DNA of 64,000 nt from Patescibacteria group bacterium (GTDB lineage: Bacteria; Patescibacteriota; Minisyncoccia; Phycocordibacterales; Phycocordibacteraceae). Positions 18,505 to 56,481 of this stretch are shown here, piece by piece. The notes below the pieces were generated by a model, which was not told where the DNA came from, did not search any database, and was given only the letters and a program-made list of their open reading frames with translations. The position numbers and the translations under genes were made by a program. The stretch spans positions 2,709 through 66,708 of the forward strand of contig SCTS01000003.1 of the NCBI GenBank assembly GCA_004322365.1. Direction: 5' to 3'. Each line of letters opens with the position of its first letter. The first letter of the stretch is position 1.

Positions 18505-18784
18505 TAGGTCGTCGTATGCATCTAAAAACACCAGAAGCTAGACACCTTTTTCCAGTAAGAGAATATCATCATGGGGCTGTATTCAAAGAACGTGGCGTGC
18601 TTATGCGTTACTGTGGTTTCTGTAAAATAAAAATGACAGATGAAGTGTGGCGAGAGCATCTAAAAGAGCAGAAACATCCGTTATTGAGAGTGTAGTAAAA
18701 CTGTATAGTAAAACCTTCATACATTTGAGGGTTTTTCTTTTTAACCCTCTAGCCCCTAAACGCTAAACGCTATACACTACTAAG

Positions 18785-22143: not shown

Positions 22144-22190
22144 ATTTTCAAAAGCTGGAACCTGACAGCTGAAAGCTGTACGCTGTCTAG

Positions 22191-39122: not shown

Positions 39123-39322
39123 GAGGATGTCTGGGAGACATCCGTGCAGGAATCGAATACCTTGCGAGCATTTTTTCTGAACTTCCGAAAAAACCACGTA
39201 CTCCAAGAGTCATTCTGCTGAATGAGGTGTACAGCTCCTGTAAAGGGACTTTTCAGAAACTGCGTTCGGACGAAATGAAAACTGCGTTTTCGTTTCGCTC
39301 CTCGCTTGTTTCTGTAAGGAGA

Positions 39323-39340
39323 GACTCCTGGTGAGAGCAC
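39323..39340 (+). repeat. direct repeat of tRNA-Arg 3' end (gactcctggtgagagcac) 250 nt downstream of the tRNA
   Basis: 18-nt exact copy of 39059-39076. Confidence 0.6.
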
Positions 39341-39408
39341 TCTTCAACTCCTTTCGTTCGCTCAGTGCAACAACTTACAGCGATTATTTTTCTAAGCACT
39401 ACAAAAAG

Positions 39409-39450
39409 CCTGTATAGTATAAATTAACGACCGTTAACTTATACTATACC
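39409..39450. repeat. palindromic element copy A (cctgtatagtataaattaacga-ccgttaacttatactatacc)
   Basis: Near-perfect 42-bp palindrome; same family as 54794-54839 and 55204-55245. Confidence 0.7.
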
Positions 39451-39509
39451 GAGTAAGATGGGTAGTATTTTGTTTAATGCTTTAATTTTGGGCGGTATAT
39501 AATAAAAAA

Positions 39510-40088
39510 ATGAAAGATCGATCATACCGAAAACCTCTGATGCCTGAAAATGCGAAGCGTGTTTTTGAAGGTGAAATTTTTGACATGTATCAGTGGGAAC
39601 AAGGGCTCTACGATGGAACTTCTGCAACTTTTGAAAAAGGTTCTCGTCCCGATACCGCGATCGTTTTTCCTATTATGGAAGACGGACAGATTTTGATAAT
39701 TGAAGACTCGCAACCTCATCGAGAGACAGTTCTTACTACTGTTGCAGGCAGGATAGAGTTTAACGAAACTCCTGAAGAGGCTGCCAAGCGGGAACTCTTG
39801 GAAGAGACAGGTTATGAAGCAAATACATGGGAATCTTTTTACACAGTTACCCCAGTCGAGAAACTTGATTGGGTTAATTATGTTTTTATCGCAAAAGGAT
39901 GTAGAAAAGTAAAAGATCAACAGCCTGACGCAGGGGAGAAAATAACTGTACGCTCAGTCACATTTGAGGAACTTATTTCACTTGCTTCGGAAGGGGAGTT
40001 GCGGGGCAGGGATTTCAGAATCATGGTACTTCAGGCAATGTTAAATCCTGAAAAAATGAAAGATTTACGAAAGAGGTTTGCCAACTAG
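39510..40088 (+). CDS. NUDIX hydrolase
   Basis: Nudix box GRIEFNETPEEAAKRELLEETG. Confidence 0.8.
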   Translation: MKDRSYRKPLMPENAKRVFEGEIFDMYQWEQGLYDGTSATFEKGSRPDTAIVFPIMEDGQILIIEDSQPHRETVLTTVAGRIEFNETPEEAAKRELLEETGYEANTWESFYTVTPVEKLDWVNYVFIAKGCRKVKDQQPDAGEKITVRSVTFEELISLASEGELRGRDFRIMVLQAMLNPEKMKDLRKRFAN

Positions 40089-40193
40089 AGGTGGTATCAC
40101 GGAACCATGGCATGGTTGAAGTCGGGGTTTGCGCTTTTTCAAACAAACATCCCAGTAAAAAAGTCATTCGTAGCGATGTTGTACACTTAAGGA

Positions 40194-40925
40194 GTGTACA
40201 CGACGCTCATATATAAGACGCCGTTCTGGAAAGAGGCCCTTATGGTGTTCATCGCATTTGCATTTATCGGGGTCGGGATGTTAGGCGTGTATGTGGCTTA
40301 CGCAGACGGCAAGTGGGTTGGGTATCTAATCGGACTAATCGCTATTCCGTTAGGTGTTATTGGTGCCATTTTGTCGGTCAGTAGTCGTACAGTGCTGAGG
40401 CTCGATGCAGGTGGTGTATTCGTACAGCCACACTTCCTCTCAAAGCAGACAATCTCGTGGAGCAATATAGAACGGTTCGAAAAATCCATTCAAACATTCA
40501 GCCAGAAGGACCGTTTCGGGTCGAGCGAACATAAGATGGCATACCTTGGAATTTATTTAAAACAGCCACGTGAAGCAGGTGTTGCGTTCGAGGTTGCTCA
40601 AACAGTATTTGAAAATATTGATGCAAAGAATGCTAAGGATCCGCTCATTGCAAAGCAACGGCAGGGACACATTTTTATTTCCGAACTCCTCCTCCCAGGG
40701 AACATCGATACTGTGCTTCGTGAAGTACGCGAATACCATGTGCATATGGTGGGGAACTCGGTTCATTATGAGTCCACGGAGATCTTTCCAAGTACCAAGG
40801 GGTCGTTCAAGCCGTCGATATACATGATCGTAGCCGGAATTGCAGTCGCTGCATTCCTTCTTCTATTTCTCCTTTCATTCATAACTGGCATGACACCAGA
40901 ACGCTTACTCAACTCAGTTTTCTAA
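40194..40925 (+). CDS. hypothetical membrane protein (N- and C-terminal TM helices)
   Basis: ORF track; GTG start, internal ATG at 40242 possible. Confidence 0.45.
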   Translation: MYTTLIYKTPFWKEALMVFIAFAFIGVGMLGVYVAYADGKWVGYLIGLIAIPLGVIGAILSVSSRTVLRLDAGGVFVQPHFLSKQTISWSNIERFEKSIQTFSQKDRFGSSEHKMAYLGIYLKQPREAGVAFEVAQTVFENIDAKNAKDPLIAKQRQGHIFISELLLPGNIDTVLREVREYHVHMVGNSVHYESTEIFPSTKGSFKPSIYMIVAGIAVAAFLLLFLLSFITGMTPERLLNSVF

Positions 40926-41027
40926 TCAATACTAAAACGTAAAAGGGTAGTCTACTAGGAGATGGTTTTTCACGTCTGATTTTTTGACGCAATGAACAAA
41001 AAATTACTATCTATTCTGGAGAGTTTT

Positions 41028-41621
41028 TCACCAAGCCCATTTCACTGATACAAAAGCAATTGCGAGAATACTAAGAAGAGTAATTCCTTGTAGTGCCATT
41101 AATATATATTTATGTGAACGCGCGACATGCGATTTTCTTTTGAGGTAGGCATGCCAGCCTTGATGAATTAAAATTATATTTCCAGTCAGTGCAAAAATGA
41201 GTATTAAGGCAGAGGTGTTTGCGGTGAGCGTTAATGCGTCAAATCCGTAGAGAGCTACACCCGCCCCCACTCCAGCAAATAGTATGTCCAGTAGTGCATT
41301 TTCTGCATCCTCTACGAGGCCAGCCCCAAACTCAAGAGCTTCGTAGAGTACTGCTCCACCAGTGATTGCTATAAAAGCGTAGAGAGTCGGCATCTCTAGA
41401 AACCACGCGAATGCTCCGAAGGTTAATCCAGAAAGTAGGTGCACGAGCGACCAGAAGTCAGCATAGCGACCATGCGCCCACCCGAAGTTTACTAGTTTTG
41501 AAGCCGTGCGTTCAAAGTTCAATTTCAGCATCTTCTCCCTAGTATACCTTTTCATCCTAAAATATCGTGGTATTCTTTGCGCGTATTCTAAAAAGAAGAA
41601 ATACCTATGGACGAAAAACAA
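41028..41621 (-). CDS. hypothetical polytopic membrane protein
   Basis: ORF track 197 aa, hydrophobic helices. Confidence 0.5.
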   Translation of the reverse strand: MFFVHRYFFFLEYAQRIPRYFRMKRYTREKMLKLNFERTASKLVNFGWAHGRYADFWSLVHLLSGLTFGAFAWFLEMPTLYAFIAITGGAVLYEALEFGAGLVEDAENALLDILFAGVGAGVALYGFDALTLTANTSALILIFALTGNIILIHQGWHAYLKRKSHVARSHKYILMALQGITLLSILAIAFVSVKWAW

Positions 41622-42125
41622 TTGAACGGGGAGATACGTACTGAAAAGACTCCACGCACGGTGTATTTTTTTGAGTACCTGACACGTTGGACTGGTTCCA
41701 TCCCATCATTGATTGTTCACACAATTCTTTTTGGCGGTGCTTTTGCTTTAGGTTTTCTACATATAGCTCCATGGGATTCTGTGCTTTTAGTATTGACGAC
41801 ATTAGTTTCTTTAGAGGCAATCTATCTTTCTTTACTCATTCAAATGACAGTCAATAGACATTCCGAAAGCTTGAAGGAGGTCGGGGAAGACGTCGAAGGC
41901 ATTCAGGAGGACATTGAGGAGATTACCGAAGACGTCGAAGGCATTCAGGAGGACATTGAGGAGATTACCGAAGACGTCGAAGGCATTCAGGAAGATGTTG
42001 AAGAAATGACTGAAGAAGATGCTGAAGACGCAGAATTGGAAAAGCGTCACCTCGTGAGCCTAGAGCAGTTAACAAAAGATGTGCAACGGGTCTTACAGGA
42101 CTTGGAAAAATTCAAGAAACAGTGA
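41607..42125 (+). CDS. membrane protein with C-terminal acidic 14-aa tandem repeats (EDVEGIQEDIEEIT x3)
   Basis: N-terminal TM region then three repeats encoded by 42-nt DNA tandem repeat. Confidence 0.55.
   Translation: MDEKQLNGEIRTEKTPRTVYFFEYLTRWTGSIPSLIVHTILFGGAFALGFLHIAPWDSVLLVLTTLVSLEAIYLSLLIQMTVNRHSESLKEVGEDVEGIQEDIEEITEDVEGIQEDIEEITEDVEGIQEDVEEMTEEDAEDAELEKRHLVSLEQLTKDVQRVLQDLEKFKKQ
41886..42011 (+). repeat. 42-nt tandem repeat, two perfect copies plus one diverged copy
   Basis: gaagacgtcgaaggcattcaggaggacattgaggagattacc repeated exactly at 41886 and 41928. Confidence 0.8.
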
Positions 42126-42252
42126 GAGGTCAGGTGTTAGGTGTTAGGTGTCAGGTTCCAGGTGCCAGCTTTTTCTACCTCTAATTTCAAAGTCAGAAGC
42201 TAAAGGCTATTTAGGCTAGCCCCGAGAGGTTCGGAGTGTTAGAGTATTTGCA

Positions 42253-43005
42253 ATGGAATCTAAAATTCATATCTCGCTGAAAGCGGATTCGTTTGGAACT
42301 CTGTGGGGTATGCCCATCACAAGCAGTCTGCTTATGACATGGTTGGCAATGGGAATCCTCTTCCTTTTCGTGTTTCTGTTTAGGCGCTCCATTGCCCTTA
42401 TACCGGGAAAACTGCAAGCAATGCTTGAGTGGGCGATTGAAGGCGCGATGGCATACATGACCGAGACCCTTGAAGATGCGAAGCTCGCTCGACGTTTTTT
42501 CCCACTCATAGCAACGCTCTTTCTCTTTATTCTGACCATCAACGAACTCGCGTTCTTCCCTGGTGTAGGAAGCGTAGGATTCTTTACTGAGCACGGATTC
42601 GCGCCACTACTCCGCCCTTCAACTGCCGACCTCAATACAACACTCGCCCTTACCCTCATCTCAGTTATTATTGTTGAAATCACTGGTGTGGTAGCGCTGG
42701 GATTTTTCCGTTATACAGGGAAATTCATAAATTTCTCGTCCCCACTTAATTTTGTTGTTGGTTTAATTGAATTAGTAAGCGAACTGGGACGCTTGGTGTC
42801 GTTGTCGTTTCGTCTTTTCGGTAACATATTTGCGGGTGAGGTTTTGATTGCGGTGATTGCGCTGTTCGTGCCGTATATTATGCCTATCCCATTTATGCTC
42901 TTCGAAATTTTTGTTGGTTTTGTTCAAGCTGTTATCTTCTCTTTACTGACTTTGTTTTTCATCAAACTTGCGGTTACGCCCCCTCATGCGAGCGAAGCTC
43001 ATTAA
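42253..43005 (+). CDS. atpB: F0F1 ATP synthase subunit a
   Basis: FRLFGNIFAGE conserved Arg motif; 5-6 TM. Confidence 0.85.
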   Translation: MESKIHISLKADSFGTLWGMPITSSLLMTWLAMGILFLFVFLFRRSIALIPGKLQAMLEWAIEGAMAYMTETLEDAKLARRFFPLIATLFLFILTINELAFFPGVGSVGFFTEHGFAPLLRPSTADLNTTLALTLISVIIVEITGVVALGFFRYTGKFINFSSPLNFVVGLIELVSELGRLVSLSFRLFGNIFAGEVLIAVIALFVPYIMPIPFMLFEIFVGFVQAVIFSLLTLFFIKLAVTPPHASEAH

Positions 43006-43107
43006 AACTGAGGAAAACCAGCCTCAATTGCTAGCCTAGTGAGGGGAAATTGGTGTATACTAGCGAGGTAATTATCAAGCCGTAAGGCATTATTTTGTAT
43101 TAATTAA

Positions 43108-43341
<234 letters not shown>

Positions 43342-43369
43342 TTGGTTTGATTTAGAAGGAATCTAAAAT

Positions 43370-43816
43370 ATGGGAGAGCTATTTGCTACATTCGGTCTTG
43401 ATGTACGACTGCTTGTTATTCAAGCAGTGAATTTTGGCATCACACTCGTTATACTTTGGTACTTTTTGTATCGACCACTTCTTCGGATAATTGGTGAACG
43501 AAAAGAGAAGATTGCGAAAGGTGTCCGTGATGCCGAAGCAGCAGCTTTCGCTGTTACGGAAATTGAAGAAAAGCGTACTTCAATGCTTTCTGCCACAGAG
43601 CGTGAGGCACAAGGCTTGGTTGAGCGTGCAACTCTCGAGGGTAAGGATGAGCGTGCAAAAATCATAAAAACTGCACAAGAAAGAAGCGACGCAATACTTG
43701 CCGATGCTAAAGCGGAGGCTGTGGAAATGCAACGCCGTGCTCTTGCCGAGTCTGAGAAGGAAATGACTCGTTTGGCAGTGCTTGCTGCAGAAAAAATTCT
43801 TCGAAAACAATCATAA
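43370..43816 (+). CDS. atpF: F0F1 ATP synthase subunit b
   Basis: Single N-terminal TM then long charged helix, operon position. Confidence 0.75.
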   Translation: MGELFATFGLDVRLLVIQAVNFGITLVILWYFLYRPLLRIIGERKEKIAKGVRDAEAAAFAVTEIEEKRTSMLSATEREAQGLVERATLEGKDERAKIIKTAQERSDAILADAKAEAVEMQRRALAESEKEMTRLAVLAAEKILRKQS

Positions 43817-43822
43817 ACCACC

Positions 43823-44206
43823 ATGTCACTTGCTAATGCCTATGCTTCAGTTATTAATGAAACTCCACAAGAGCTTCAAAATGCTGATTTTACTTTGAAG
43901 TTGCTTGCGTTTATGCGTGCACGAGGACACATGTCACTTCTTTCTGAGATTGTGCAAATACTAGAAAATAAACCAAAAGAGGCTGACGCAGTAGTGACTG
44001 TTGCTCACGGGGCAGATTTGAAAGAATTTGCATCTGAAATAAAATCTGCTCTCTCTACATTAGGGGCGGATGCAAAAATACACCGCACCATCGTTGATGC
44101 CCGTGCTGTGGGTGGCTATTCAGTGCGCGCAGGTTCTCAAATAATCGACAACACCTTTAGAACAGCGCTCGTCGACATTTATCAAAAAACAGTAGGTAGT
44201 AGATAA
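43823..44206 (+). CDS. atpH: F0F1 ATP synthase subunit delta (short, 127 aa)
   Basis: Operon position between b and alpha; OSCP-like C-terminal region. Confidence 0.6.
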   Translation: MSLANAYASVINETPQELQNADFTLKLLAFMRARGHMSLLSEIVQILENKPKEADAVVTVAHGADLKEFASEIKSALSTLGADAKIHRTIVDARAVGGYSVRAGSQIIDNTFRTALVDIYQKTVGSR

Positions 44207-44282
44207 TCGGTAGCGCACTTTAAAGCTCGTTACTTACCATTTACTACATACTTTAAACTTGTTACTAACTTACTAATCTCAT

Positions 44283-45842
44283 ATGGACATCAGCATCATT
44301 GAACGCCTCAAGAGAGAAATTGAATCCTTTGCACCAAATGCAAAGCCAACTGAAACGGGCATCGTGCGCAAGGTGGGTGATGGCATTGTTGAGATAGAAG
44401 GTTTGGATGAAGTGTCGATGGCCGAGATGGTTCGCTTTGACGAAGGTTCGGTATCTGATGTGAAAGCAACTATCGCACATGAGGATACACTCTACGGCGT
44501 TGTGTTGAACTTGGAAGAGAATACTGTAAAGGCAATCATCCTTGGAGATTCTTCCCGCATTAAAGAGGGAATGCTTGTGCATCGCACAAAGAAACTTCTT
44601 TCAATACCAGTTGGAGATGCAGTGATTGGTCGCATCGTTGATGCACTTGGAGTTCCTATAGATGGGAAAGGCCCAATCAAGGCGGATGCCACGAGTCCTA
44701 TTGAGCGCGAGGCGTACGGCGTTATTGATAGAGGTCCTGTGAATGTGCCAATGCACACCGGCATTAAAGCAATTGACTCACTGATTCCTATCGGCCGCGG
44801 ACAGCGCGAACTCATCATTGGTGACAGAGGCACTGGTAAAACAACGGTTGCTATTGATGCAATTTTGAACCAACTCAATGAACCAAAGGAGACACGCCCT
44901 ATTTGTGTATATGTCGCTATTGGTCAAAAAGAATCAAAGACTGCCCGCATTGCAGCAATGCTTAAAGAGCGCGGTGCGATGGATTACACCATTATGGTAT
45001 CAGCTCCAGCATCAGCGTCAGCAGCATTCCAATTCTTGGCACCGTACGCGGGTGTAACTTTGGGTGAATATTTCATGGATAAAGGCAGAGATGTGTTGGT
45101 TATCTATGACGATCTTTCCAAGCAAGCTGTTGCGTACCGACAACTCTCTCTTCTCCTTCGTCGTCCTCCTGGACGCGAGGCATACCCTGGAGACATTTTC
45201 TACCTCCACTCAAGACTTTTGGAACGAGCTGCAAAACTTTCTCCTGAAAAAGGAGGAGGCTCTCTTACGGCACTTCCTATTATTGAAACGCAAGAAGGTG
45301 ACATCTCGGCATACATTCCAACCAATGTTATTTCTATTACTGATGGTCAGATGTTCTTGGAAGCGGATCTTTTCAACAAAGGAACGCGCCCTGCTATCAA
45401 TGTAGGTATTTCAGTTTCTCGTGTCGGTTCCGCTGCTCAAACAAAAGCTATGAAGAAGGTGTCGGGACGCATCAAGCTCGACCTCGCACAGTTCCGTGAA
45501 CTTGAGGCATTCATGCAGTTCTCCCAAGACCTTGATGCTGAAACAAAGAAGACTATCGATGGTGGTCGCCGTCTTTCAGCAATCTTGAACCAAAACAAAA
45601 ACGCCCCAATTCCATTTGAGCGACAAGTCGTTGTCATGTACGCAGTCACGAACGGTTTCTTTGATGCCTTTGGTGCAGAGCAGATGGGTGAGATAGAGGC
45701 GAAGTTTCTTGCATATCTCGACAGGGAAGCAAAGGGAGTTCTTGAAGCTATCCGCACATCTAAAGAAATAGCTAAAGACACAGAAGAAAAATTGAAGAGC
45801 GCTATTCAATCGTTTGTTTCAACTGTAGATGTGAAAAGCTAA
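44283..45842 (+). CDS. atpA: F0F1 ATP synthase subunit alpha
   Basis: GDRGTGKT Walker A, conserved alpha core. Confidence 0.9.
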   Translation: MDISIIERLKREIESFAPNAKPTETGIVRKVGDGIVEIEGLDEVSMAEMVRFDEGSVSDVKATIAHEDTLYGVVLNLEENTVKAIILGDSSRIKEGMLVHRTKKLLSIPVGDAVIGRIVDALGVPIDGKGPIKADATSPIEREAYGVIDRGPVNVPMHTGIKAIDSLIPIGRGQRELIIGDRGTGKTTVAIDAILNQLNEPKETRPICVYVAIGQKESKTARIAAMLKERGAMDYTIMVSAPASASAAFQFLAPYAGVTLGEYFMDKGRDVLVIYDDLSKQAVAYRQLSLLLRRPPGREAYPGDIFYLHSRLLERAAKLSPEKGGGSLTALPIIETQEGDISAYIPTNVISITDGQMFLEADLFNKGTRPAINVGISVSRVGSAAQTKAMKKVSGRIKLDLAQFRELEAFMQFSQDLDAETKKTIDGGRRLSAILNQNKNAPIPFERQVVVMYAVTNGFFDAFGAEQMGEIEAKFLAYLDREAKGVLEAIRTSKEIAKDTEEKLKSAIQSFVSTVDVKS

Positions 45843-45876
45843 AACCTAGCACCTGAAACCTGACACCTAAAATCCC

Positions 45877-46794
45877 ATGTCTCTCAAGGATATAAAAATC
45901 AAAATAAAATCTGTTGACCGTACTCGTAAAGTTACGAAGGCAATGGAGTCTGTTTCTGCGGTAAAGATGCGCAAAAGCCAGATACGCGCAATTACTTCAC
46001 GACCATACGCTTCTTCCGCGCTTTCTATTTTGGAACGCATGAGTGTTTCTCTCTCATCTCTCAAACACCCGTTGACAGTTGTGCGCCCTGTTAAAAAAGC
46101 TGCCATTGTTGTAGTGACAAGCGATAAAGGTTTGTGCGGAATATTAAATGCTGCTGTTGTGAAATCCGCCTACACGCTTGCGGAATCACTTGAAATCCCG
46201 CGTGAAGCAATTTCTATCTATGCTTTTGGACGCAAAGGGGCCGAGTTTTTTGATCGCCGTGGATATCAAATTTTAGGAAAATTTGAAAACGTTTCCGACG
46301 ATGTTTCTGTTGCTGATTTGGCGCTGGTATCAAACGATATTGCGCGAGCGTTTCTAAGTAAAGAGTTTGATCGTGTTGATGTTGTATACACGAATTTCAA
46401 ATCAACCTTTGAGCAAAGTGCTATTGCCCACAAGGTACTACCGCTTTCGATTGAAACAGTTTCTGAAATAGTAAGTGGCATTGCTCCAGTGAAAGGAAAA
46501 TTTGCTGTAACAGAGCGAGTGAAAGGCCCTGCATCATACACGGCAGAGCCATCTCAAGAGGTGGTTGTCGATGCTTTGATTCCACGCTTGGTAAGTGTTC
46601 TTTTCTTTCATGCACTTCTGGAGTCTAAAGCATCCGAGCACTCAGCTCGAATGGTTGCTATGAAGAATGCATCTGATAAATCCCGTGACCTCTCAAAGTT
46701 GCTGACGAGAAAGTACAATAAAGCTCGTCAGGCGCTTATTACCAGAGAAGTTTCCGAGATTGTCGGAGGTATTGAGGCGATGGCGACTAGTTAG
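45877..46794 (+). CDS. atpG: F0F1 ATP synthase subunit gamma
   Basis: N- and C-terminal coiled-coil helices, operon position. Confidence 0.8.
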   Translation: MSLKDIKIKIKSVDRTRKVTKAMESVSAVKMRKSQIRAITSRPYASSALSILERMSVSLSSLKHPLTVVRPVKKAAIVVVTSDKGLCGILNAAVVKSAYTLAESLEIPREAISIYAFGRKGAEFFDRRGYQILGKFENVSDDVSVADLALVSNDIARAFLSKEFDRVDVVYTNFKSTFEQSAIAHKVLPLSIETVSEIVSGIAPVKGKFAVTERVKGPASYTAEPSQEVVVDALIPRLVSVLFFHALLESKASEHSARMVAMKNASDKSRDLSKLLTRKYNKARQALITREVSEIVGGIEAMATS

Positions 46795-46827
46795 AAAGAA
46801 TAGAAGAACTAATGTAAAATCAAAAAC

Positions 46828-47010
46828 ATGGCATCCCCAGAAAGAAAAGGAGCATTAGATATCTTTAATCTTCCGGGTCGCGGGCGACTTGGTTTGGCAG
46901 GAGGAATGGGCGGAGGCGGAGGCTCATACAGACCTGAACCAGTAAGCCGTCGTGACAATGTGGTAAAGCTGGATGATTTTAGAAAATTGAAGGAAGATAC
47001 GAATCAGTAA
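46828..47010 (+). CDS. small Gly-rich hypothetical protein inserted between atpG and atpD
   Basis: ORF track 60 aa; GLAGGMGGGGGSY; fills the gap between atpG and atpD. Confidence 0.35.
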   Translation: MASPERKGALDIFNLPGRGRLGLAGGMGGGGGSYRPEPVSRRDNVVKLDDFRKLKEDTNQ

Positions 47011-47035
47011 ACTCACAAAATTTAATTTACAATAA

Positions 47036-48415
<1,380 letters not shown>

Positions 48416-48567
48416 TGGCCTATGTTAAGAGATCGTCAACCTACGCTTCGAGAAAAACCTCTAAATCCGCTTGAAACGTATATTTCTTTCATGCGGAGAG
48501 TGAGTTCACCTCTCATGGAGTGGTTGCTTCCCGATGCATTACCTGCGAAAAAACAAAAATAATTTTT

Positions 48568-48798
48568 ATGTTGGTTGTTATTGCAAAAGTTCATGAGAAT
48601 CTTTTTTCGGGAGAAGCACTCTCGCTTTCTGCTATGACCACAGAAGGGAAGCTGACGATACTTCCAAAACATGAACCATTTGTAGCAAACCTGAAAGCAG
48701 GAGAAGTGGTAGTAAAAACAACTTCAGGGGAAGAGAGGTTTGATATTACTGAAGGAGTTCTTGAGGTGTCTAACAATCAAGTAACGGTACTTTTGTAG
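48568..48798 (+). CDS. atpC: F0F1 ATP synthase subunit epsilon (beta-sandwich domain only)
   Basis: MLVVIAKVHENLFSGEA...LTILPKHEP; ATG at 48568; 76 aa. Confidence 0.65.
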   Translation: MLVVIAKVHENLFSGEALSLSAMTTEGKLTILPKHEPFVANLKAGEVVVKTTSGEERFDITEGVLEVSNNQVTVLL

Positions 48799-48837
48799 GT
48801 TTCTTGACAAAACTGTATTTTGGAGTATAAGTAGTAG

Positions 48838-49002
48838 ATGGCAAGCAAAAAAGAACGAGTAAAACGAGAACGAGTAATACTTTGTAGTCACCTATATTGT
48901 ATATTTCCAGGTCGGCACAAATGCTTTAATTGTGAGGGTATGTACTGTGCTGGTCACTTAGCAATTCACTTAATGATTAGTAGGTGTTCTTCTATAAGAT
49001 AG
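48838..49002 (+). CDS. 54-aa Cys/His-rich peptide (CSHLYC...HKCFNCEGMYCAGH), candidate zinc finger, own promoter and terminator
   Basis: TTGACA (48806) -N16- TATAAG then ATG 8 nt later; ends before terminator 49026-49051; not in ORF track (<60 aa). Confidence 0.3.
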   Translation: MASKKERVKRERVILCSHLYCIFPGRHKCFNCEGMYCAGHLAIHLMISRCSSIR

Positions 49003-49025
49003 GAGTAGAATTTTCAGAAGCATCT

Positions 49026-49051
49026 AAAAAGCAACAGATAGTTGCTTTTTT
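49026..49051. terminator. bidirectional rho-independent terminator between convergent atp operon and RND operon
   Basis: aaaaagcaac-agatag-ttgcttttttt: stem flanked by A-run and T-run. Confidence 0.7.
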
Positions 49052-49061
49052 TATACAAGAT

Positions 49062-52000
49062 TTAAGTTGACGAAGAGGGATTCCAGAATTGTTTTCCTGG
49101 GTTTCGGTAGACGAGGATTGGGGTGAGTACCAATGTCAAAATCATTGCAAATGAGAGGCCAAACATAATAGCGAAGGCAAGAGGTCCCCATAGTGCAGAT
49201 GCGCCAGCGAGAGGAATCATACCAATGACGGTAGTGATGGTAGTGAGAACAATTGGTCGGAGTCTACTTGCTGAACCGTCGACAACTACCTCCTCCAATG
49301 TCTTTCCTTCAGGATTCTTCATGCGGATTATGATTGAGTCCACAAGAATTATGGCGTGGTTGATTATGACGCCAGCAAGCGCAATGACACCAAGAAGGGA
49401 AGAGAATGAGAGTGGCTGTCCAGTAAGAGCAAGGCCACCTAGTACTCCAATGAGAGAAAGAATAACGAGCATGAGGAGATAGAACGAATAGCGGAATGAA
49501 TTGAATTCGAGTACTAGAACTGCAAGCATAAGCACCAAACCAGCAAGGAAGGCAATTCCCATTTCACTGAATGACTTGTTTACATCTTCCGTTTCGCCTC
49601 CGATTTTCATTACCACACCGGTCGGTAGAGTTTCTTTTTCAATAGCTTTTTTGAATGCAGTAGACACCTCAACAGCTGTTGCCCCTCCTTCGGTGTATGC
49701 AGAAACAGTGGCAATGTTTTTTTGGTCTTGGCGCCTAATAACTGCGTTTGATTTTTCAATAGAAGGAGAGAGAATTGAACCTAACAGTACTGTGCCCCGA
49801 GGTGTTTTTACAGATAGGTTTAGGAGCGTATTGATGTCTGCTTTTGTTGTATCTCCAGGTTCTTGCCAAGCAGGGTTTAGGTTTGTGGAGACAAGAACGT
49901 CGATGTCCTCGGTGTCGTTTTTTATAGTGGTTGCAACAACACCTGAGACTGCAGTTCGGAGAATGCTTGCTACTTGAAGAGGTGAGAGTCCCACTTGTGA
50001 TGCCTTGGCGCGGTCAATAGTGAGAGCAAACTGTGTTCCGTCGTCTTTAATAGATGTAGCTACTTCAGCGGTACCTTTGATGGAGCGCATCATTTTTTCA
50101 CCGGTGGCTACTGAGCGCTCTAGGTCATCAAGATTGTCTCCTGAAAAGGTTATAAGAACTGGGGCGCCCGAAGGTGGTCCGCCAGCTGGCTCGAATGCAT
50201 TTACAGAAAATTCATGGAAAACAGAAACTTTTTTTCTGAGCTCCTCAGTAATTTGTGTTGAAGTTTGTTTCCGATCTTCTTTCGGTACGAGCTTGATGGT
50301 GATGTTTGCGTATTTGGCACCGCTGGATTGATTTTGACTTAATCCTGATGAAGCACCGACGGTGGTTACAAATGAGCTGATACGCGAATCGTTATAAAGA
50401 AGCTCTTCTACACCTCGGGTGGCAAGATCAGTCGCTTCAAGTGGTGTGCCTTGCTTTGCTTCTACTTCAAGATATACATAATCGGCATCTTCTGATGGGA
50501 AAAAGAGCACTTTCACAATACCTGACACTGGTAAGAGAATTGCTACGACGAGAGCAAGACCCAATCCAAGCATGAATCTATTTTGGAATTTTCTATTTTT
50601 CAAAACTCCCGTAAGAAAGCTTCGGTACCATACTTGTGCTTTGTTATTCCACTCTTCTTGTATGAATTGAAGTTTGCCAGTGCTTCGCTTGGTGAGATTT
50701 ATTGCAATTAATGGTACAAGGCCGAGTGCTACAAAAATCGAAGCAATAAGAATGGTAATGATTGTAAAGGGGATTGATTGAATGTATTGACCAACAATGC
50801 CTGAAATAAAGAAGAGTGGTGCAAACATAACGACAGTCGTCATGGTTCCTGCAGTCAAAGGTCGTGCGTATTCACGGATGGCTTCTTTTGCTGCGCGAAT
50901 CGGATCACCGAATTTCTGGTAGCGCGTGTGAATTGCTTCTGTTACCACGATGCCAGAATCAACAAGAATGCCGATCGCAAGAATGAGTGCGAAGAGTGAG
51001 ACGAAGTTTATGGTATTACCTGAAGCGTTCAGTCCTATGAAGGCAATAACAAAAGAAAGAGGAATCGAAAGTCCTGCAACGAGCGATTCTCGCCAGCCAA
51101 TTGTTAACACAAGGCAGATCATGACGAGAGCGATTGTTTCTAAGCCAACTTTAGTAAGTTCGCTCAAACTTTTCTGAACTTCTTCTCCAAGGTCAATCGA
51201 GATATCGGTAGTGATACCCAAAAGCATTGTTCCTGAGAGTGAGTTTAGTTTTTCTTTTGCTGCTGATGCTGTTTTGAAAATATTTCCTCCAGCTTTTTTA
51301 TATACTGAAAGGGTAATTGCAGGCTCTGCTGGATCGCCTTTAGTAGAAACGCGAGATACGCTTTTTGCTTTCTCAAGACCGTTAACGATGTCCGCTACAT
51401 CGCGAAGATAAATTGGATTGCCGTTCAAATTCCCGATACTTGTTTGCGCGAGTTCTTCTGGGTCATTCAGATCACCCTTAAAGGCAACAGAATACTCAAT
51501 GGCATCGACGGTTATAGTGCCGACAGGTAAAGAGCTATTGGACGCGCTTAGGGCGGATACTACGTCCGTAAGTGATAGTCCGTATGATTGTAGAGCTTCT
51601 TTGCGGACAATTATGTTCGCTTCTCGTTCGCGGGTACCGCTGATTTCCACTCTGGACACACCAGACACTTGCTCAAGTTCATCCTGCACATCTTTGGCAA
51701 GACGAGTAAATTCTGTTGGCGGAAGTCCGCCAGAAAGAGACACTATAAAAATTGGTTGATCGTTCGCTGTGATGCGCAGTACCACAGGTTCGTCTGCGTC
51801 TTTAGGAAGTTTGGGTTTTGCACGGTCAACTGCATCTTTAACATCCTGAATTGATTTATCAATATTTGCCGATGCTTCAAATTCAGCACTCACTACAGAG
51901 ACTCCTTCGCGAGAAGATGAGGTAAGTTTGTGAAGGTTCTCAACAGTCCCAACTTCTTTCTCTATTTCCTTTGTTATGAGTTTTTCAGTGTCTGCTGCAG

Positions 52001-52166
52001 AGGCACCACGAAGTGTTGTTTGAATAATGGCAATAGGAATTGTTACCTCTGGGGCATTTTCTTTTGGTATTGCTAAAACGGCTACGAACCCTGCCACCAC
52101 AAGCCCGATTATTACTAGGATAGTGAACTGCCTGCGTTCAATGAAAAAGTTCCAAAATTTATGCAT
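49062..52166 (-). CDS. RND-family efflux transporter permease (AcrB/HAE-like, 12 TM, two large loops)
   Basis: 1034 aa, duplicated 6-TM + loop architecture, conserved RND TM4 region. Confidence 0.85.
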   Translation of the reverse strand: MHKFWNFFIERRQFTILVIIGLVVAGFVAVLAIPKENAPEVTIPIAIIQTTLRGASAADTEKLITKEIEKEVGTVENLHKLTSSSREGVSVVSAEFEASANIDKSIQDVKDAVDRAKPKLPKDADEPVVLRITANDQPIFIVSLSGGLPPTEFTRLAKDVQDELEQVSGVSRVEISGTREREANIIVRKEALQSYGLSLTDVVSALSASNSSLPVGTITVDAIEYSVAFKGDLNDPEELAQTSIGNLNGNPIYLRDVADIVNGLEKAKSVSRVSTKGDPAEPAITLSVYKKAGGNIFKTASAAKEKLNSLSGTMLLGITTDISIDLGEEVQKSLSELTKVGLETIALVMICLVLTIGWRESLVAGLSIPLSFVIAFIGLNASGNTINFVSLFALILAIGILVDSGIVVTEAIHTRYQKFGDPIRAAKEAIREYARPLTAGTMTTVVMFAPLFFISGIVGQYIQSIPFTIITILIASIFVALGLVPLIAINLTKRSTGKLQFIQEEWNNKAQVWYRSFLTGVLKNRKFQNRFMLGLGLALVVAILLPVSGIVKVLFFPSEDADYVYLEVEAKQGTPLEATDLATRGVEELLYNDSRISSFVTTVGASSGLSQNQSSGAKYANITIKLVPKEDRKQTSTQITEELRKKVSVFHEFSVNAFEPAGGPPSGAPVLITFSGDNLDDLERSVATGEKMMRSIKGTAEVATSIKDDGTQFALTIDRAKASQVGLSPLQVASILRTAVSGVVATTIKNDTEDIDVLVSTNLNPAWQEPGDTTKADINTLLNLSVKTPRGTVLLGSILSPSIEKSNAVIRRQDQKNIATVSAYTEGGATAVEVSTAFKKAIEKETLPTGVVMKIGGETEDVNKSFSEMGIAFLAGLVLMLAVLVLEFNSFRYSFYLLMLVILSLIGVLGGLALTGQPLSFSSLLGVIALAGVIINHAIILVDSIIIRMKNPEGKTLEEVVVDGSASRLRPIVLTTITTVIGMIPLAGASALWGPLAFAIMFGLSFAMILTLVLTPILVYRNPGKQFWNPSSST

Positions 52167-52196
52167 ACGAGTTAGCTAATGGCTATAGCCTAAAAC

Positions 52197-53798
52197 CTAT
52201 TGGCTAATAATTACTTCTTCACCATCCTTAAGGCCTCGAGCATCTTTAACTATTCTCATGTCGGAAGTTATTCCTGAAGTTACCGCAATTCTAGAACCTG
52301 CAAGCGTTCCAACAATCACAGGGTGGGGAACAAGGATTCCATTTTCAGTAACGGTGAAAACAATTGTTCCCTCAGGGGTAATTTTGAGTGCAGATAAAGG
52401 TAGGGTGAGAGGAGTGTCCTTTACTGATGTTTTGGTTGTTCGCGCAATGGATACAGATGCACTTGATCCAGAAACTAGAGAAGTATTTTGAGGAATAGAG
52501 ATGCGAACTTCAGCTTTTTTTGTTACAGGGTCAAGTGCGTTTGCAAGTCTGACAACTTTACCTGTGACTGATTTTCCAACCACTACAGTTGCCCCAACGG
52601 AAATGTCAGCAATGTCACGCTCTGAAACGAACACAACAACCTCAAGACCTCGTGCATTCGTTATATATACAACAGGCACTGACGCGTTCACGAAAGACCC
52701 CACCTCAAGGTCAAGACGGTTAATAGTGCCTCCAATTGGTGCGCGGATGATAGTTTTTTCTAGATTAGCTTTTGCTGCTTGAAGATTAGCTTCTGCTCCG
52801 CGTACATCCGAATTTTGTAATGCACCTCCAGAAAGATTTTCTGTTGACACTTGTACTGCGGAAGTCTTCGCCTTCAAATTCTCAATTGCACTATTCACTG
52901 CAGAGGCAGAACCGTTTACGTTTGAAAGTGCTAGTGATACATCAGCACGATATCCTGCAATTGCAGCATCAGTAACGGAGCCAGACGCGATTGCCTTATT
53001 GAGAGCTGAAACCGTTGCAGAGAGAAGATCGCGAACCTTATTGATGTCACCCCGGAGAGCTTCAAGCTCAGCAAGGGCGCTTGTGGCGTCAGTTGGAGTC
53101 TCTGCTCTTTCTTCTCGGATTAAAACAGTTTGTATTGCAAGGCGCTTACTTTCTACATTCAGAACAGCCTGAGAATTTGAAGTCGATACTATAAATTTAG
53201 GCTGTGAGCCGTTTGGATTAGAAAATACCCCATCTAATTTTTTACTCACTGCATCGTCAAGCGTCGCGTAGGTGCTAGCAATTGTATTTTTTGCGGAGTT
53301 AATACTTGCAGTGAGACTGTCTTCAGCACTGCCAAGTCCGATACCGCTTACGGCGACACCTGTCTTTGCTTTATCAAGTGCTGCTTCTGCTTGTGCTACT
53401 CCTGCGCGTTGTGAATCGTTCTTCAGGTCTGCAATGACTGTGCCAGCCCCAACAGTGTCACCGAGTGATCGGTACACATGTGCGACCGTACCAGATGCAT
53501 CAGGAGCTACATTGGCTTCGCTGACGGAGCGAACTTCACCAATTAAGGAGATGGGTTCTGGAGCAGAAAGGTCGTTTGCCGAGAGTAGGGTCACTTGCCG
53601 TCTCCCGTCTGTAGCCCCCTCAGGCTTTGCTTTGAAAAAATAAGACATACCTACACTTCCGGCAATGAGAGCAACAATAATGCCAAGAGAAATGAGTTTA
53701 TGTGCTTTTGCTACGATAAAAAACTCTTGTGAAGCTTTCCAAATAAATATCAATCCTCCTCGAAGAAAGGTGAGTGCGCGTATAAGGTGTTCGTTCAT
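52197..53798 (-). CDS. efflux periplasmic adaptor / HlyD-family membrane fusion protein (long, 533 aa)
   Basis: N-terminal TM anchor, long coiled-coil (Ala/Ser-rich), C-terminal beta-barrel motifs; directly upstream of RND gene. Confidence 0.7.
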   Translation of the reverse strand: MNEHLIRALTFLRGGLIFIWKASQEFFIVAKAHKLISLGIIVALIAGSVGMSYFFKAKPEGATDGRRQVTLLSANDLSAPEPISLIGEVRSVSEANVAPDASGTVAHVYRSLGDTVGAGTVIADLKNDSQRAGVAQAEAALDKAKTGVAVSGIGLGSAEDSLTASINSAKNTIASTYATLDDAVSKKLDGVFSNPNGSQPKFIVSTSNSQAVLNVESKRLAIQTVLIREERAETPTDATSALAELEALRGDINKVRDLLSATVSALNKAIASGSVTDAAIAGYRADVSLALSNVNGSASAVNSAIENLKAKTSAVQVSTENLSGGALQNSDVRGAEANLQAAKANLEKTIIRAPIGGTINRLDLEVGSFVNASVPVVYITNARGLEVVVFVSERDIADISVGATVVVGKSVTGKVVRLANALDPVTKKAEVRISIPQNTSLVSGSSASVSIARTTKTSVKDTPLTLPLSALKITPEGTIVFTVTENGILVPHPVIVGTLAGSRIAVTSGITSDMRIVKDARGLKDGEEVIISQ

Positions 53799-53801
53799 AT
53801 A

Positions 53802-54131
53802 TTACGATCGTTCAGTTTTTTTAAGTACTGAGCGAATATTTTTTAAATTGCCCGCTAAATGCGCTGCGAATTTTTCAACATTTGCGAGTTTAGTAAATGC
53901 AATCATATCGCACCCCATGCCAAAAACGAGTAATTTCTCACCATCTTTGAGGTTCATTGCTTTCCGTGCTTCCGCAGGAATTACAACCTGTCCTTTGGCG
54001 CCCACTGTGGTGGTGCCATAAAACTCTTTTTGGGTAGTGTGTGGTTTTATCATAAGTATTTCGAATCCTATCATGAGTATCCCAATGCATACAAGTATGA
54101 AATGTAAGAATATCAGCAGGCTCGTCCACAT
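53802..54131 (-). CDS. SpoVT/AbrB (MazE-like) domain protein with N-terminal hydrophobic segment; candidate regulator of the efflux operon
   Basis: TTVGAKGQVVIPAEARKAMNLKDGEKLLVF swapped-hairpin AbrB motif; start trimmed to internal ATG (54131) because the upstream ORF extension overlaps the convergent gene at 54165. Confidence 0.5.
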   Translation of the reverse strand: MWTSLLIFLHFILVCIGILMIGFEILMIKPHTTQKEFYGTTTVGAKGQVVIPAEARKAMNLKDGEKLLVFGMGCDMIAFTKLANVEKFAAHLAGNLKNIRSVLKKTERS

Positions 54132-54164
54132 GCCTCTTGAGATAAAAAACAAAGGAAAGATTGT

Positions 54165-54773
54165 ATGTCTGCTAGAATAGGCGACATGACTTCGAGTAAG
54201 AAGAAAATATTTATTCTCATGGGAAATCCTGACAGCGATTCTCGTACAGGACACCTTGCTGATGCGTATGAACTCGGCGCTCTTGAAGCAGGACATGAAG
54301 TGAGGCGTCAAAATGTAGGTGAGATGCATTTCGACCCAATACTCCATAAGGGATATAAGGTTATTCAGGAATTAGAGCCTGACTTAAAAGCTTTTCAGGA
54401 AAATGTACGATGGGCAGATCATTTGGTGGTGTTGTATCCAAACTGGTGGTCCACGATGCCCGCCCTCTTGAAGGGACTTATTGACCGGGCGTGGCTTCCG
54501 GGGTTTGCGTTTCGTTTTCATAAAACCGACACATGGTGGGACGGTCTTTTGAAAGGAAGGAGCGCTCGCATAATAATTTTAGCTAACACCAACCCATGGG
54601 CTGCGTGGTTTATGTTTGGTGAATTCACTAACGAACTTGCGCGGGCAACGCTCGCATTTTCAGGTATTCGTCCAATTTCAATCAATGTGTTTACACCCTC
54701 TGAGAAAGTCTCAGAAACCAAATGGAAAAAATGGGTGCAGATGGTGCAAGAAATGGGGAAATTTGCCCGTTAA
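54165..54773 (+). CDS. flavodoxin-like fold NAD(P)H-dependent oxidoreductase (Flavodoxin_2/MdaB/KefF-like)
   Basis: FILMGNPDSDSRTG N-terminal FMN-binding loop, WWSTMPALLKGLIDR. Confidence 0.7.
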   Translation: MSARIGDMTSSKKKIFILMGNPDSDSRTGHLADAYELGALEAGHEVRRQNVGEMHFDPILHKGYKVIQELEPDLKAFQENVRWADHLVVLYPNWWSTMPALLKGLIDRAWLPGFAFRFHKTDTWWDGLLKGRSARIIILANTNPWAAWFMFGEFTNELARATLAFSGIRPISINVFTPSEKVSETKWKKWVQMVQEMGKFAR

Positions 54774-54793
54774 TTTTTCAATGTTGCATTTTT

Positions 54794-54839
54794 ATCTGTA
54801 TAGGATAATCTAACGACCGTTAGGTTATCCTATACAGAT
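54794..54839. repeat. palindromic element copy B (atctgtataggataatctaacga-ccgttaggttatcctatacagat)
   Basis: 46-bp near-perfect palindrome with one mismatch. Confidence 0.75.
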
Positions 54840-54872
54840 GTTTTAAACTTAAGGAACAAAACTAAAGTATTT

Positions 54873-55154
54873 TTGTTACCTTGGCTGTATTCAAAAAGTA
54901 CTACATGTGCACCCTTTATTAACTCAGTGTATAACTTTTTATATATGCCTTTTGGAAGAATACTTGAAGGAAAAATAAACCGTCGAGCTAAGGCTGATCG
55001 AACTTTGGTTGGTGAACGCGAAGTTAAACTCGATTCTTTTGGACGTCAATTGAAAAAAAGAAATGAGGGGGTTTATGATGTGTGGGGCATCTTAAAAATT
55101 TTTGAAAGCGGTAGAACGGAAAAGGTGATTCGAATAGGATCTTTCGAAGGATAG
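54873..55154 (+). CDS. hypothetical small protein
   Basis: ORF track 93 aa; bounded by palindromic elements B and C; no motif recognised. Confidence 0.3.
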   Translation: MLPWLYSKSTTCAPFINSVYNFLYMPFGRILEGKINRRAKADRTLVGEREVKLDSFGRQLKKRNEGVYDVWGILKIFESGRTEKVIRIGSFEG

Positions 55155-55203
55155 GGTTAATTAATACATTGCGCAGCTAAAGCGTAATAATCCTGATTCC
55201 TGT

Positions 55204-55256
55204 CTGTATAGTATAATTTAACGATCGTTAAATTATACTATACAGGTCTTTTTTTA
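55204..55256. terminator. palindromic element copy C (42-bp perfect palindrome) followed by T9 run
   Basis: ctgtatagtataatttaacga|tcgttaaattatactatacag then gtcttttttt. Confidence 0.75.
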
Positions 55257-55383
55257 AATCTTTCTTGATTGTGATTGCGCAGGTTTGATTAAAATATTAT
55301 TTTCTTGAAAGTCGAATAATCTTTTCAGGCATTGCGATGTATCGACTAGCCACTAAGCCCTAAACCCTATACACTAGGCACCT

Positions 55384-56481
55384 ATGGGTTTATCTATCGG
55401 TATTGTTGGTCTTCCAAATGTGGGCAAATCCACACTTTTTAACGCACTCACCGCAAAAGGTGTCCCTGCGGAGAATTATCCGTTTTGTACTATCGATCCA
55501 TCGGTCGGCATTGTGCCAGTGCCTGACCCTCGCCTTCAAAAACTTGCCACGCTTTCAAATTGCTCAAAGATCATTCCTGCGGTTATTGAGTTTGTTGATA
55601 TTGCTGGCTTGGTAAAGGGTGCGTCTGAAGGTGCCGGACTAGGAAATCAGTTTCTTCAGCACATTCGCGAAACAGATGCGATTTTGGAAGTGGTGCGTAT
55701 CTTTGATGACGCCGACATTACACACGTTGAAGGTGAGGTTGATCCTGTTCATGATATTGAAGTCATCAATCTAGAACTTGTTCTTACTGATCTTTCTGCA
55801 GTATTAAAGCGACTTCAAAGTGTTGAGCGCGATAGCAAGCGGGGAGTTAAAGAAGCAATTTTAGAACAAGCAACACTACAGAAAGTTGAACAAACTCTTT
55901 CAGCGGGAAAGCTCGCCTCAACCACAGTACTGTCAGATGAAGAACGCTTTGCAATACGCGGATTGCAACTTTTGACCATGAAGCCAATTATGTACGCCCT
56001 CAATAAAAAAGCCGGGGGGCACAATCTTGATGAGATGAATGATGGTCGCTATCAAAAACTCGTTGAGTTTTTAGACGGTATGGGTGCTGAATACGCCACT
56101 GTGGATGCAGGAATTGAAGGAGAACTTCGTGATGTTGCAGGTGAAGATAAAGAAACATTGAGACGAGAGTTTGGGGTTTTAGACGACGGGCTAGACGGGC
56201 TTATTCGTGCAGGATATCGGTTGCTTGGATTAATGACATTCCTTACTACGGGAGAGGTTGAAACGAGAGCGTGGACAGTGAAGATTGGCTCCACCGCACC
56301 TGAAGCTGGGGCAGCTATTCATACTGACTTTAGGGATACCTTTATTAAGGCAGAAGTGGTTCCCTATGAAAAACTCGTTGAGGCTGGATCGTATGTTGCA
56401 GCTCGCGAAAAAGGTTGGGTGCGAACAGAAGGCAAGGAATATATAGTGAAAGACGGAGATGTCATTGAATTCAAGGTATGA
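55384..56481 (+). CDS. ychF: ribosome-binding ATPase YchF (Obg-family GTPase)
   Basis: GIVGLPNVGKSTLFNALT G1 motif, C-terminal TGS domain. Confidence 0.9.
   Translation: MGLSIGIVGLPNVGKSTLFNALTAKGVPAENYPFCTIDPSVGIVPVPDPRLQKLATLSNCSKIIPAVIEFVDIAGLVKGASEGAGLGNQFLQHIRETDAILEVVRIFDDADITHVEGEVDPVHDIEVINLELVLTDLSAVLKRLQSVERDSKRGVKEAILEQATLQKVEQTLSAGKLASTTVLSDEERFAIRGLQLLTMKPIMYALNKKAGGHNLDEMNDGRYQKLVEFLDGMGAEYATVDAGIEGELRDVAGEDKETLRREFGVLDDGLDGLIRAGYRLLGLMTFLTTGEVETRAWTVKIGSTAPEAGAAIHTDFRDTFIKAEVVPYEKLVEAGSYVAAREKGWVRTEGKEYIVKDGDVIEFKV

Follow-up and report, generated by a model that had tools for sequence, protein, structure and literature searches.

A family of 42-bp palindromes at gene boundaries of Paceibacterota and its association with a small PaaX-like protein

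Long palindromes are present at three intergenic positions of a 64,000-nt stretch of bacterial DNA with a GC content of about 42%. This stretch is called the window below, and coordinates are window positions unless another locus is named. Its sequence places it in a clade of Paceibacterota (Parcubacteria), within the candidate phyla radiation (CPR). Its gene content comprises, among others, a tRNA cluster, a NUDIX hydrolase gene, a gene for a flavodoxin-like protein, ychF, and an RND pump. The three palindromes, copies A, B, and C (Table 1), are versions of one 42-bp dyad, for which the chance expectation is zero. Copy A has the sequence CTGTATAGTATAAATTAACG AC CGTTAACTTATACTATACCG, in which the imperfect pairs are a T/C and an A/C mismatch, and is situated 332 nt past the tRNA-Arg gene and 46 nt upstream of the -10 box of the NUDIX gene. 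Copy B represents the variant GGATAATC...GGTTATCC and follows the stop codon of the flavodoxin-like gene by 22 nt. Copy C lies 49 nt past ORF69, a small open reading frame (ORF), and 138 nt upstream of ychF.

The original prediction, made from the letters of the DNA, had placed three palindromes of the same family at these sites, and pattern searches verified all of them. The exact outer pattern matched B and C, with no match expected, and a search of the window with the 20-nt half-site (up to three mismatches) returned precisely the six arms of A, B, and C, with an expectation of zero from 100 shuffles. The predicted coordinates of B and C were correct, whereas copy A begins one base to the right of the predicted 39409. 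Its placement between the tRNA cluster and the NUDIX gene was right, with the end of tRNA-Arg at 39077 and the NUDIX start codon at 39510. Folded as single strands, the three copies reach -16 to -31 kcal/mol (z-scores of -5 to -10), and both strands form a stable hairpin. Copy C had been described as followed by nine T residues and as acting as a bidirectional terminator. However, its actual tail is GTC followed by T7, and because an A-run is absent upstream, it would terminate in one direction at most. The T-run of copy A is on the antisense strand.

Table 1. Positions of the palindromes and of neighboring features in the window
Feature	Position	Strand	Remarks
Palindrome copy A	39410..39451	no strand	18/20 arm pairs; centre AC
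TATAAT box	39498..39503	+	6 nt before the NUDIX ATG (39510); copy A upstream, no overlap
NUDIX hydrolase gene	39510..40088	+	downstream of copy A
Flavodoxin-like fold / FMN (flavin mononucleotide) reductase gene	54165..54773	+	upstream of copy B
Palindrome copy B	core 54796-54837, extended by AT/AT to 54794..54839	no strand	one T.G wobble
ORF69 (69 aa)	54945..55154	+	bracketed by B and C; longest reading 93 aa from TTG 54873
Palindrome copy C	55204..55245	no strand	perfect 21+21 dyad; centre AT
Tail after copy C	55246..55255	+	GTC, then T7 (55249-55255); with the hairpin, intrinsic-terminator-like signal
TACACT, -10-like box	55370-55375	+	8 nt before the ychF ATG
ychF GTPase gene	55384..56481	+	downstream of copy C

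One genome per species was scanned with the pattern TATAGNATAANNTAACGNNCGTTA, and metagenomes were scanned in a second, looser search in which the TAA block was left free. The species-genome scan yielded at least 53 loci, nearly all of them in the three Paceibacterota metagenome-assembled genomes (MAGs) JAGOSG01, VMHB01, and JBBAAE01. The metagenome scan yielded at least 49 loci, chiefly from one further genome (Ga0207952) and from the source sample of JBBAAE. Once duplicates had been removed, the DNA fetched from six or more related Paceibacterota genomes (about 0.8 Mb) contained at least about 95 distinct sites. All counts are minimum values, and orthologous sites are included in them; the density amounts to at least 18-22 sites per genome of about 0.8 Mb, or about one site per 40 kb. 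According to crude ORF calls, not a single site is inside an ORF. The sites lie between tandem, convergent, and, in some cases, divergent genes, at a median distance of 67 nt from the upstream stop codon. Zero matches were found in the scanned viral contigs, and a phage or viral origin was rejected on these grounds. The original prediction had conceded that the palindromes might be plain terminators confined to the three sites, without conservation and alike by chance. This does not apply, because the family is repeated and conserved across strains, and the pattern and half-site matches compared with zero expected likewise led us to reject chance similarity of terminators. No description of the element, or of PaaX-like proteins in CPR bacteria, was found in the literature. 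To the extent that the literature could be searched, the 42-bp element has thus not been described before.

When both arms were pooled, three invariant blocks became apparent, TATAG (positions 4-8), TAA (11-13), and TAACG (16-20), which were present in 188-190 of 190 arms; TATAG and TAACG had been imposed by the search patterns. C1 is 96% conserved, and the C1-G42 pair at the base of the stem is kept. Positions 1-3, 9, 10, 14, and 15 are variable (for example, positions 1-3 read CTG, CGG, CAG, CGA, or CAA) and covary between the arms. In total, 91% of the cells were paired, and 180 cells were changed on both sides, compared with 77 +/- 7 after shuffling (0/500). Under register-shift controls the signal collapsed. 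At about 60% of the sites, pairing continues into the first two flanking base pairs, with bases that differ from site to site. The centre is AT, AC, or GT, and never GC. A comparison of orthologues revealed no clear excess of conservation of the palindrome over its flanks (0-5 differences in 42 positions, flanks 75-95% identical), and the differences within the palindrome were mostly compensated pairs. With the Rfam covariance models, only tRNAs passed the gathering threshold, and nothing credible was found around copy A at E<=10.

A search for genes flanked by two palindrome copies led to a gene encoding a PaaX-like protein of 193 aa. In all six closest loci (L032, L045, L048, L070, L078, and L085) this gene is located between two palindromes of the family. 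The protein matched the Pfam family PaaX_M, the Cas2-like middle domain of PaaX (5.9e-20), whereas the C-terminal ligand-binding domain PaaX_C is lacking according to Pfam. With a profile of 37 homologues, E. coli PaaX (8a39) was the best match in the PDB (1.6e-4), and weak matches to AspA (E about 0.005-0.009) and to MarR winged-helix proteins were also obtained. The AlphaFold model has a predicted local distance difference test score of 68 overall and above 70 from residue 60 onward. A fold search with this model returned 8a39 first (6e-5), followed by many Cas2 structures, and the Cas2-like domain keeps the FDI aspartate of Cas2 and an invariant acidic motif, PYDCED.

The PaaX-like family is widespread in Parcubacteria, and ten additional contexts likewise have the gene between two palindromes, which are 36-44 bp long and differ by lineage. 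In L103 (74% protein identity), the same family palindrome is found on both sides. L104 and L109 (68% and 57% identity) have kept the outer ATATAGTATAA arms around a new centre, and L105, L106 (twice), L107, L108, L110, and L111 (51-60% identity) have other dyads of 36-42 bp, many of them around CTATAG. Copies with an asymmetric centre are mutually inverted (ACGGTAGC versus GCTACCGT in L104, gt versus ac in L111). The similarity of upstream and downstream flanks was scored at 13-38 for the PaaX-like genes and at 9.0 +/- 1.7 for 152 control genes, and 7 of the 10 PaaX-like genes scored above every control. The cognate helix-turn-helix regulator for which the original prediction had suggested a search may thus be this winged-helix gene of the PaaX family. 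The gene is not present within the 64-kb window; a PaaX-like protein, TAK59261.1, is encoded in the MAG from which the window presumably originates, as judged by the proximity of the accession to that of ORF69 (TAK59164.1).

Two of the distant loci have the gene and its two palindromes within ribosomal-protein clusters, namely after map in L110 (10001-10567) and between S10 and L3 in L111 (8265-8849). In L111, separate canonical terminators are located outside both palindromes. The Kaiserbacteria locus L106 contains a 42-bp palindrome, GTACTTGTTTATGATTCGCGGTCGCGAATCATAAACAAGTAC, at 18979-19020, and its arms contain TGATTCGCG, which is close to what we take to be the E. coli PaaX box, WWTRTGATTCGYGWT. 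Two PaaX_M paralogues are also encoded at this locus, together with a Y1_Tnp gene whose flanking hairpin is a different one.

According to a review of the phenylacetate pathway (PMC9493321), the target of E. coli PaaX is TGATTC(N27)GAATCA, and the protein is a repressor of its own promoter. The palindromes described here have the same geometry, TGTATAG-N26-CTATACA, i.e. a dyad of about 39-42 bp whose short outer half-sites are conserved and separated by about three helical turns. The associated protein belongs to the same family, has the same domain pair, and has 8a39 as its best PDB match by both sequence and fold. In addition, the site adjoins the protein's own gene, as in the known autoregulation of PaaX (PMC9493321). 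Among the known systems compared, the element is most like a PaaX-type operator, as in E. coli and Pseudomonas, with an extra constraint of the hairpin type. The differences are that the protein is short and without PaaX_C, that no paa genes are involved, that a second copy is always present downstream of the gene, that about 20 sites occur at gene boundaries of a tiny genome, and that the entire 42 bp, beyond the two half-sites, form a hairpin-capable palindrome with covarying arms.

Our preferred reading, to which we give roughly an even chance, is that the 42-bp palindromes are putative DNA sites of the small PaaX-family protein and have been multiplied to about 20 gene boundaries. The data establish the family, its conservation, the covariation of the arms, and the linkage of gene and palindromes; we infer binding, the assignment of the half-sites, and a regulatory outcome. 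The candidate protein, with an N-terminal winged helix and a Cas2-like dimerization domain, would be encoded elsewhere in the same genome as the window. Its dimer would place the two winged helices on the outer TATAG/CTATA blocks, with centres about 32 bp (three helical turns) apart, as E. coli PaaX does on TGATTC-N27-GAATCA. The two copies around its own gene in all relatives would mediate autoregulation and control of the next gene, and the site would have been multiplied in the clade. At the window sites, the bound protein might be an upstream regulator or a boundary or roadblock element. It would not be a classical promoter-occluding repressor, since the window palindromes are upstream of the promoters and not on them. 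A transcript across a site would fold into the hairpin of -16 to -31 kcal/mol, and a T-run on the transcribed strand would lead to termination. Termination would be a side effect where the T-run is on the right strand, clearly at copy C and weakly at copy B. The original prediction had offered REP/MITE-like elements or binding sites of a dimeric regulator as alternatives. The regulator site is the best-supported of these, owing to the linkage with the PaaX-like gene and the operator geometry, whereas defining features of REP and MITE elements are missing (see below).

In CPR bacteria, genomes are tiny, regulators are few, and hardly any regulatory site is known from experiments; a conserved pair of protein and site in Parcubacteria would give a testable entry to gene regulation or chromosome organisation in this group. 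The usual annotation of PaaX-like proteins in these MAGs is 'Cas2' or 'phenylacetic acid repressor', and the palindrome context makes both labels doubtful.

Several points weigh against the proposed binding-site function. The link to the protein is based on the association of gene and sites. With about 20 sites and about 800 genes, around one doubly flanked gene per genome is expected by chance, and the case therefore depends on the repetition across lineages. Since orthologous sites are included in the counts, the number of independent loci is roughly 20-25, and only three variant by-catch sites test TATAG and TAACG in an unbiased manner. Furthermore, arm covariation and the extension of the stem into the flanks are not required by a dimer on duplex DNA, and the fourfold enrichment of T-runs beside the stem (see below) is not predicted by an operator model. 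The distance to the promoter is variable, about -46 to -88 for the NUDIX gene and beyond -120 for ychF. Lastly, the free positions of an operator pair at an ArsR-like gene of the window are not symmetric, whereas the 42-bp family is symmetric throughout, and this comparison shows that such full symmetry is unusual.

The latter gene encodes an ArsR/SmtB-like winged-helix protein of 96 aa (2062-2352) and is flanked by inverted 28-bp dyads, ATTCTAG-NN-TTTTGCAAAA-NN-CTAGAAT, at 2022-2051 and 2323-2350, which look like a classical operator pair. The second dyad overlaps the 3' end of the gene and the start region of the next gene, a flavoprotein-like ORF (2334-3707). The comparison indicates that bracketing fits ordinary regulator logic, i.e. 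control of the own promoter and of a neighboring gene.

The covariation of the arms leaves room for a mechanism beyond a plain operator. It may reflect a further level of selection (RNA hairpin or cruciform), a protein that recognises the extruded form, or the 'correction' of quasi-palindromes by template switching during replication, which is a known mutational process.

Three other explanations for the palindromes were considered. They might be plain intrinsic terminators, often bidirectional, that have a long AT-rich stem by common descent together with a GC clamp and A/T runs and do not need a protein; we regard this as unlikely. In agreement with it, stable hairpins form on both strands, all sites are intergenic, at the median of 67 nt past the upstream stop codon, C1-G42 is conserved, and the flanks often add GC pairs and A/T runs, e.g. 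AAACCC[...]GGGTTTT, so that part of the sites have the A-run, the GC-clamped hairpin, and the T-run of a bidirectional terminator. T-runs (at least 5 of 7) were observed on 46% of the sides, fourfold more than at background intergenic positions (11%), with a T-run on at least one side at 79% of the sites and on both sides at 14%. Copies C and B fit in orientation, and both probably terminate, C clearly and B weakly. However, the T-run frequency is 0.39-0.50 in all four gene-orientation classes, and thus the side of the T-run is independent of the incoming gene. Many tandem loci carry a T-run solely on the antisense strand, and no bias of G.U over A.C was found on the sense strand (16 vs 10, p=0.33). 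In addition, the ordinary terminators of these genomes are numerous, unique, GC-rich hairpins (bidirectional), in contrast to the 20-bp AT-rich stem of fixed sequence, and in L011/L068, in L037 (after rplL), and in L111 an ordinary terminator is positioned between the upstream gene and the palindrome. Together, these results show that plain termination does not explain the family, and the invariant blocks and the bracketing of the PaaX-like gene would also be left unexplained. The latter applies equally to an RNA processing or stability element, in which the perfect 20-bp duplex of read-through transcripts would either be a target of RNase III or protect the 3' end, and would separate or stabilise neighboring messages. 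A stem of about two helical turns, pairing kept by compensatory changes, the location between tandem genes, and the presence of an RNase III gene in relatives (L103) would be in line with such a function. Nevertheless, we consider it highly improbable, because neither the G.U pairs nor the central dinucleotide (AC vs GT, not significant) showed strand asymmetry, sites also occur between divergent genes, and no Rfam family matched.

The third explanation is a selfish system similar to repetitive extragenic palindromes (REPs) and their associated tyrosine transposases (RAYTs), i.e. mobile or copy-corrected hairpins that a cognate PaaX/Cas2-like enzyme binds, possibly cuts, and has spread to about 20 copies. 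As in REPtrons, short extragenic palindromes occur in tens of copies, the cognate gene is located between copies that are inverted wherever the centre is asymmetric (L104, L111), and the palindrome sequence varies together with the protein lineage. The module is found in different neighborhoods, for instance downstream of map and between S10 and L3. The covariation of the arms, the lengthening of the stem by the flanks, the cassette differences beside the palindromes at both window loci, and the retained FDI aspartate and PYDCED motif of the Cas2-like domain also agree with mobility. On the other hand, occupancy is stable in six genomes, with A and C present in all of them, and regions orthologous to the window have no extra pattern-matching sites. 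The sites are single and do not form clusters of bacterial interspersed mosaic elements, and their positions are stable between species. Target-site duplications and a transposase domain of the HUH/Y1 or another type were not found, and the relatives of PaaX are repressors. Indels also arise without palindromes, and the operator pair of the ArsR-like gene shows that bracketing alone does not imply mobility. For these reasons a REP/RAYT-like system appears rather improbable to us. A further version is that a module widespread in Parcubacteria, made up of a Cas2-fold/winged-helix protein and its flanking hairpin palindromes, constitutes a self-propagating or self-maintaining unit, a functional analogue of REP/RAYT on a PaaX/Cas2 scaffold, whose protein would recognise, and perhaps process, extruded hairpins. 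If extruded hairpins were recognised, this would explain why the arms covary, why the flanking copies are inverted, and why the sites have expanded to about 20 in this clade, but we regard this version as quite improbable.

The element is not a REP, a miniature inverted-repeat transposable element (MITE), an attC site, an uptake sequence, or a member of a known RNA family. Like REPs, it is extragenic with many dispersed copies. However, it lacks the GT(A/G)G head, positions 1-3 being variable, and its hairpins are perfect or nearly so rather than imperfect. A cognate Y1 transposase was not found beside the repeats (the whole genomes of the clade were not searched), the flanked gene being of the PaaX_M/Cas2-like type, and the single Y1_Tnp gene seen is that of the distant Kaiserbacteria locus, beside a different palindrome. 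MITEs were rejected as the flanks are inverted complements or unrelated and never direct repeats, and as occupancy is conserved between genomes. DNA uptake sequences occur about once per kb, also inside genes, whereas this element occurs about once per 40 kb and is strictly intergenic. Against integron attC sites, the stems are perfect, arrays are missing, and there are two cassette-like differences only; the search for an integrase covered the window, not whole genomes, and found none. Sites of the parS and Fur/LexA types were set aside on copy number, length, or architecture. Winged-helix centromere binders such as AspA and nucleoid proteins (Noc, MatP) are similar in that the winged-helix region gave weak AspA profile matches, that a palindromic site is next to the protein's own gene, and that there are tens of chromosomal sites. 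They differ in that no context of a partition ATPase was seen and that the sites described here are strictly intergenic and much longer.

In this lineage, a TAnnnT box, often preceded by TG, is found 6-8 nt ahead of the ATG of genes, with a -35-like box, cTGGCA, and an A-tract upstream, a design of the leaderless type. The NUDIX gene has a perfect TATAAT box, which is kept in L049 and L034, and its distance of 6 nt from the ATG points to a leaderless transcript. Promoters within the palindrome (TATAAT in each arm) were considered and rejected, as the downstream genes have TAnnnT boxes of their own 50-130 nt away, and no conserved -35 box was found in the palindrome flanks. The palindromes are situated upstream of the promoters of these genes and do not coincide with them. 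The distance from the end of the palindrome to the A-tract/CTGGCACC (CTGG) motif is exactly 16 nt at three or four independent loci, which hints at a functional coupling with the promoter. The full start-codon motif consists of the A-tract, CTGGCACC, 7-nt repeats (CTGNNAN), TG-TAnnnT, a spacer of 6-8 nt, and ATG, and it reads as a sigma-70-type promoter for leaderless mRNAs. It was observed in the window at 22149-22192 (+), 42174-42120 (-), 55343-55386, and 18745-18788, and at many other loci, e.g. L002 267, L013 378, and L031 5357. Inverted copies of the motif (TAGGTGCCAG) are located directly at certain stop codons, one example being L003 926-960.

Sequence identity between the window and its relatives is 83-98%, and each of these relatives has orthologues of sites A and C. 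At copy A, a single palindrome is present in L100 and L094, and VMHB and JBBAAE have the arrangement palindrome, 103-aa ORF, palindrome. Orthologues of copy C were found in L010, L011/L068, L090, and L112. Copy B is restricted to the window and strain L112, which share the arrangement B-ORF69-C, and is absent in L010, L090, and L011. In JAGOSG and Ga0207952 this locus consists of a single palindrome without an ORF, and in JBBAAE it is occupied by an unrelated 107-aa gene that has a terminator of its own. No homology was found among the bracketed small ORFs (ORF69, the 103-aa ORF, and the 107-aa ORF), and hence there is no common passenger gene. It is possible that recombination at the palindromes is behind the cassette differences at both window loci.

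ORF69 was correctly predicted to be bracketed by B and C, and its predicted length of 93 aa is less likely than 69 aa with a start at ATG 54945. The 107 nt between copy B and this ATG (54838-54944) are near-identical in L112, the adjacent coding sequences being about 85% identical, and each of the four substitutions would be non-synonymous in the 93-aa frame. Near-identity and substitution pattern indicate that this segment is kept as non-coding DNA, favouring the short start. ORF69 matched no Pfam family and has one homologue, which is 90% identical and in the same arrangement. It is identical to TAK59164.1, labelled by NCBI as hypothetical protein EPO14_00850 of a 'Patescibacteria group bacterium' MAG.

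An indel without palindromes was observed at 40081-41025. This segment of 945 bp, with a 243-aa ORF without a Pfam match, is missing in L100 and L049, in which 34-36 nt join the same flanks, and no palindrome is located at its borders.

The relatives contain more small families of long palindromes, such as ATACCCCTTATTCGTGCGAATAAGGGGTAT, GTATACCCCCACACCTTTTCA...TGAAAAGGTGTGGGGGTATAC, and CTAAAAATCGAATAGGTTGCATATGCAACCTATTCGATTTTTAG, at L056 164, L015 6247, L027 4287, L095 1680, L053 2425, L040 699/1766, L093 3546, L082 1820, L088 8513, and L027 7954. Some of these palindromes share an intergenic region with the 42-bp element. A further hairpin, CTCGGGGAAGRG...CYCTTCCCC(A)CTCGCTTCGTTAG, is conserved in the leader of gltX, the gene for glutamyl-tRNA synthetase (L003 1095-1135, L001, L019, and L052), and is a possible cis-regulatory RNA. 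The sequence at 39320-39350, GACTCCTGGTGAGAGCAC, which lies between tRNA-Arg and copy A, resembles the 3' end (T-arm and acceptor) of the tRNA-Ala gene at the matching place in L049 and is probably what remains of a decayed tRNA gene. Order and strand of the genes in the tRNA cluster vary among the relatives, as a comparison of L100 with the window illustrates.

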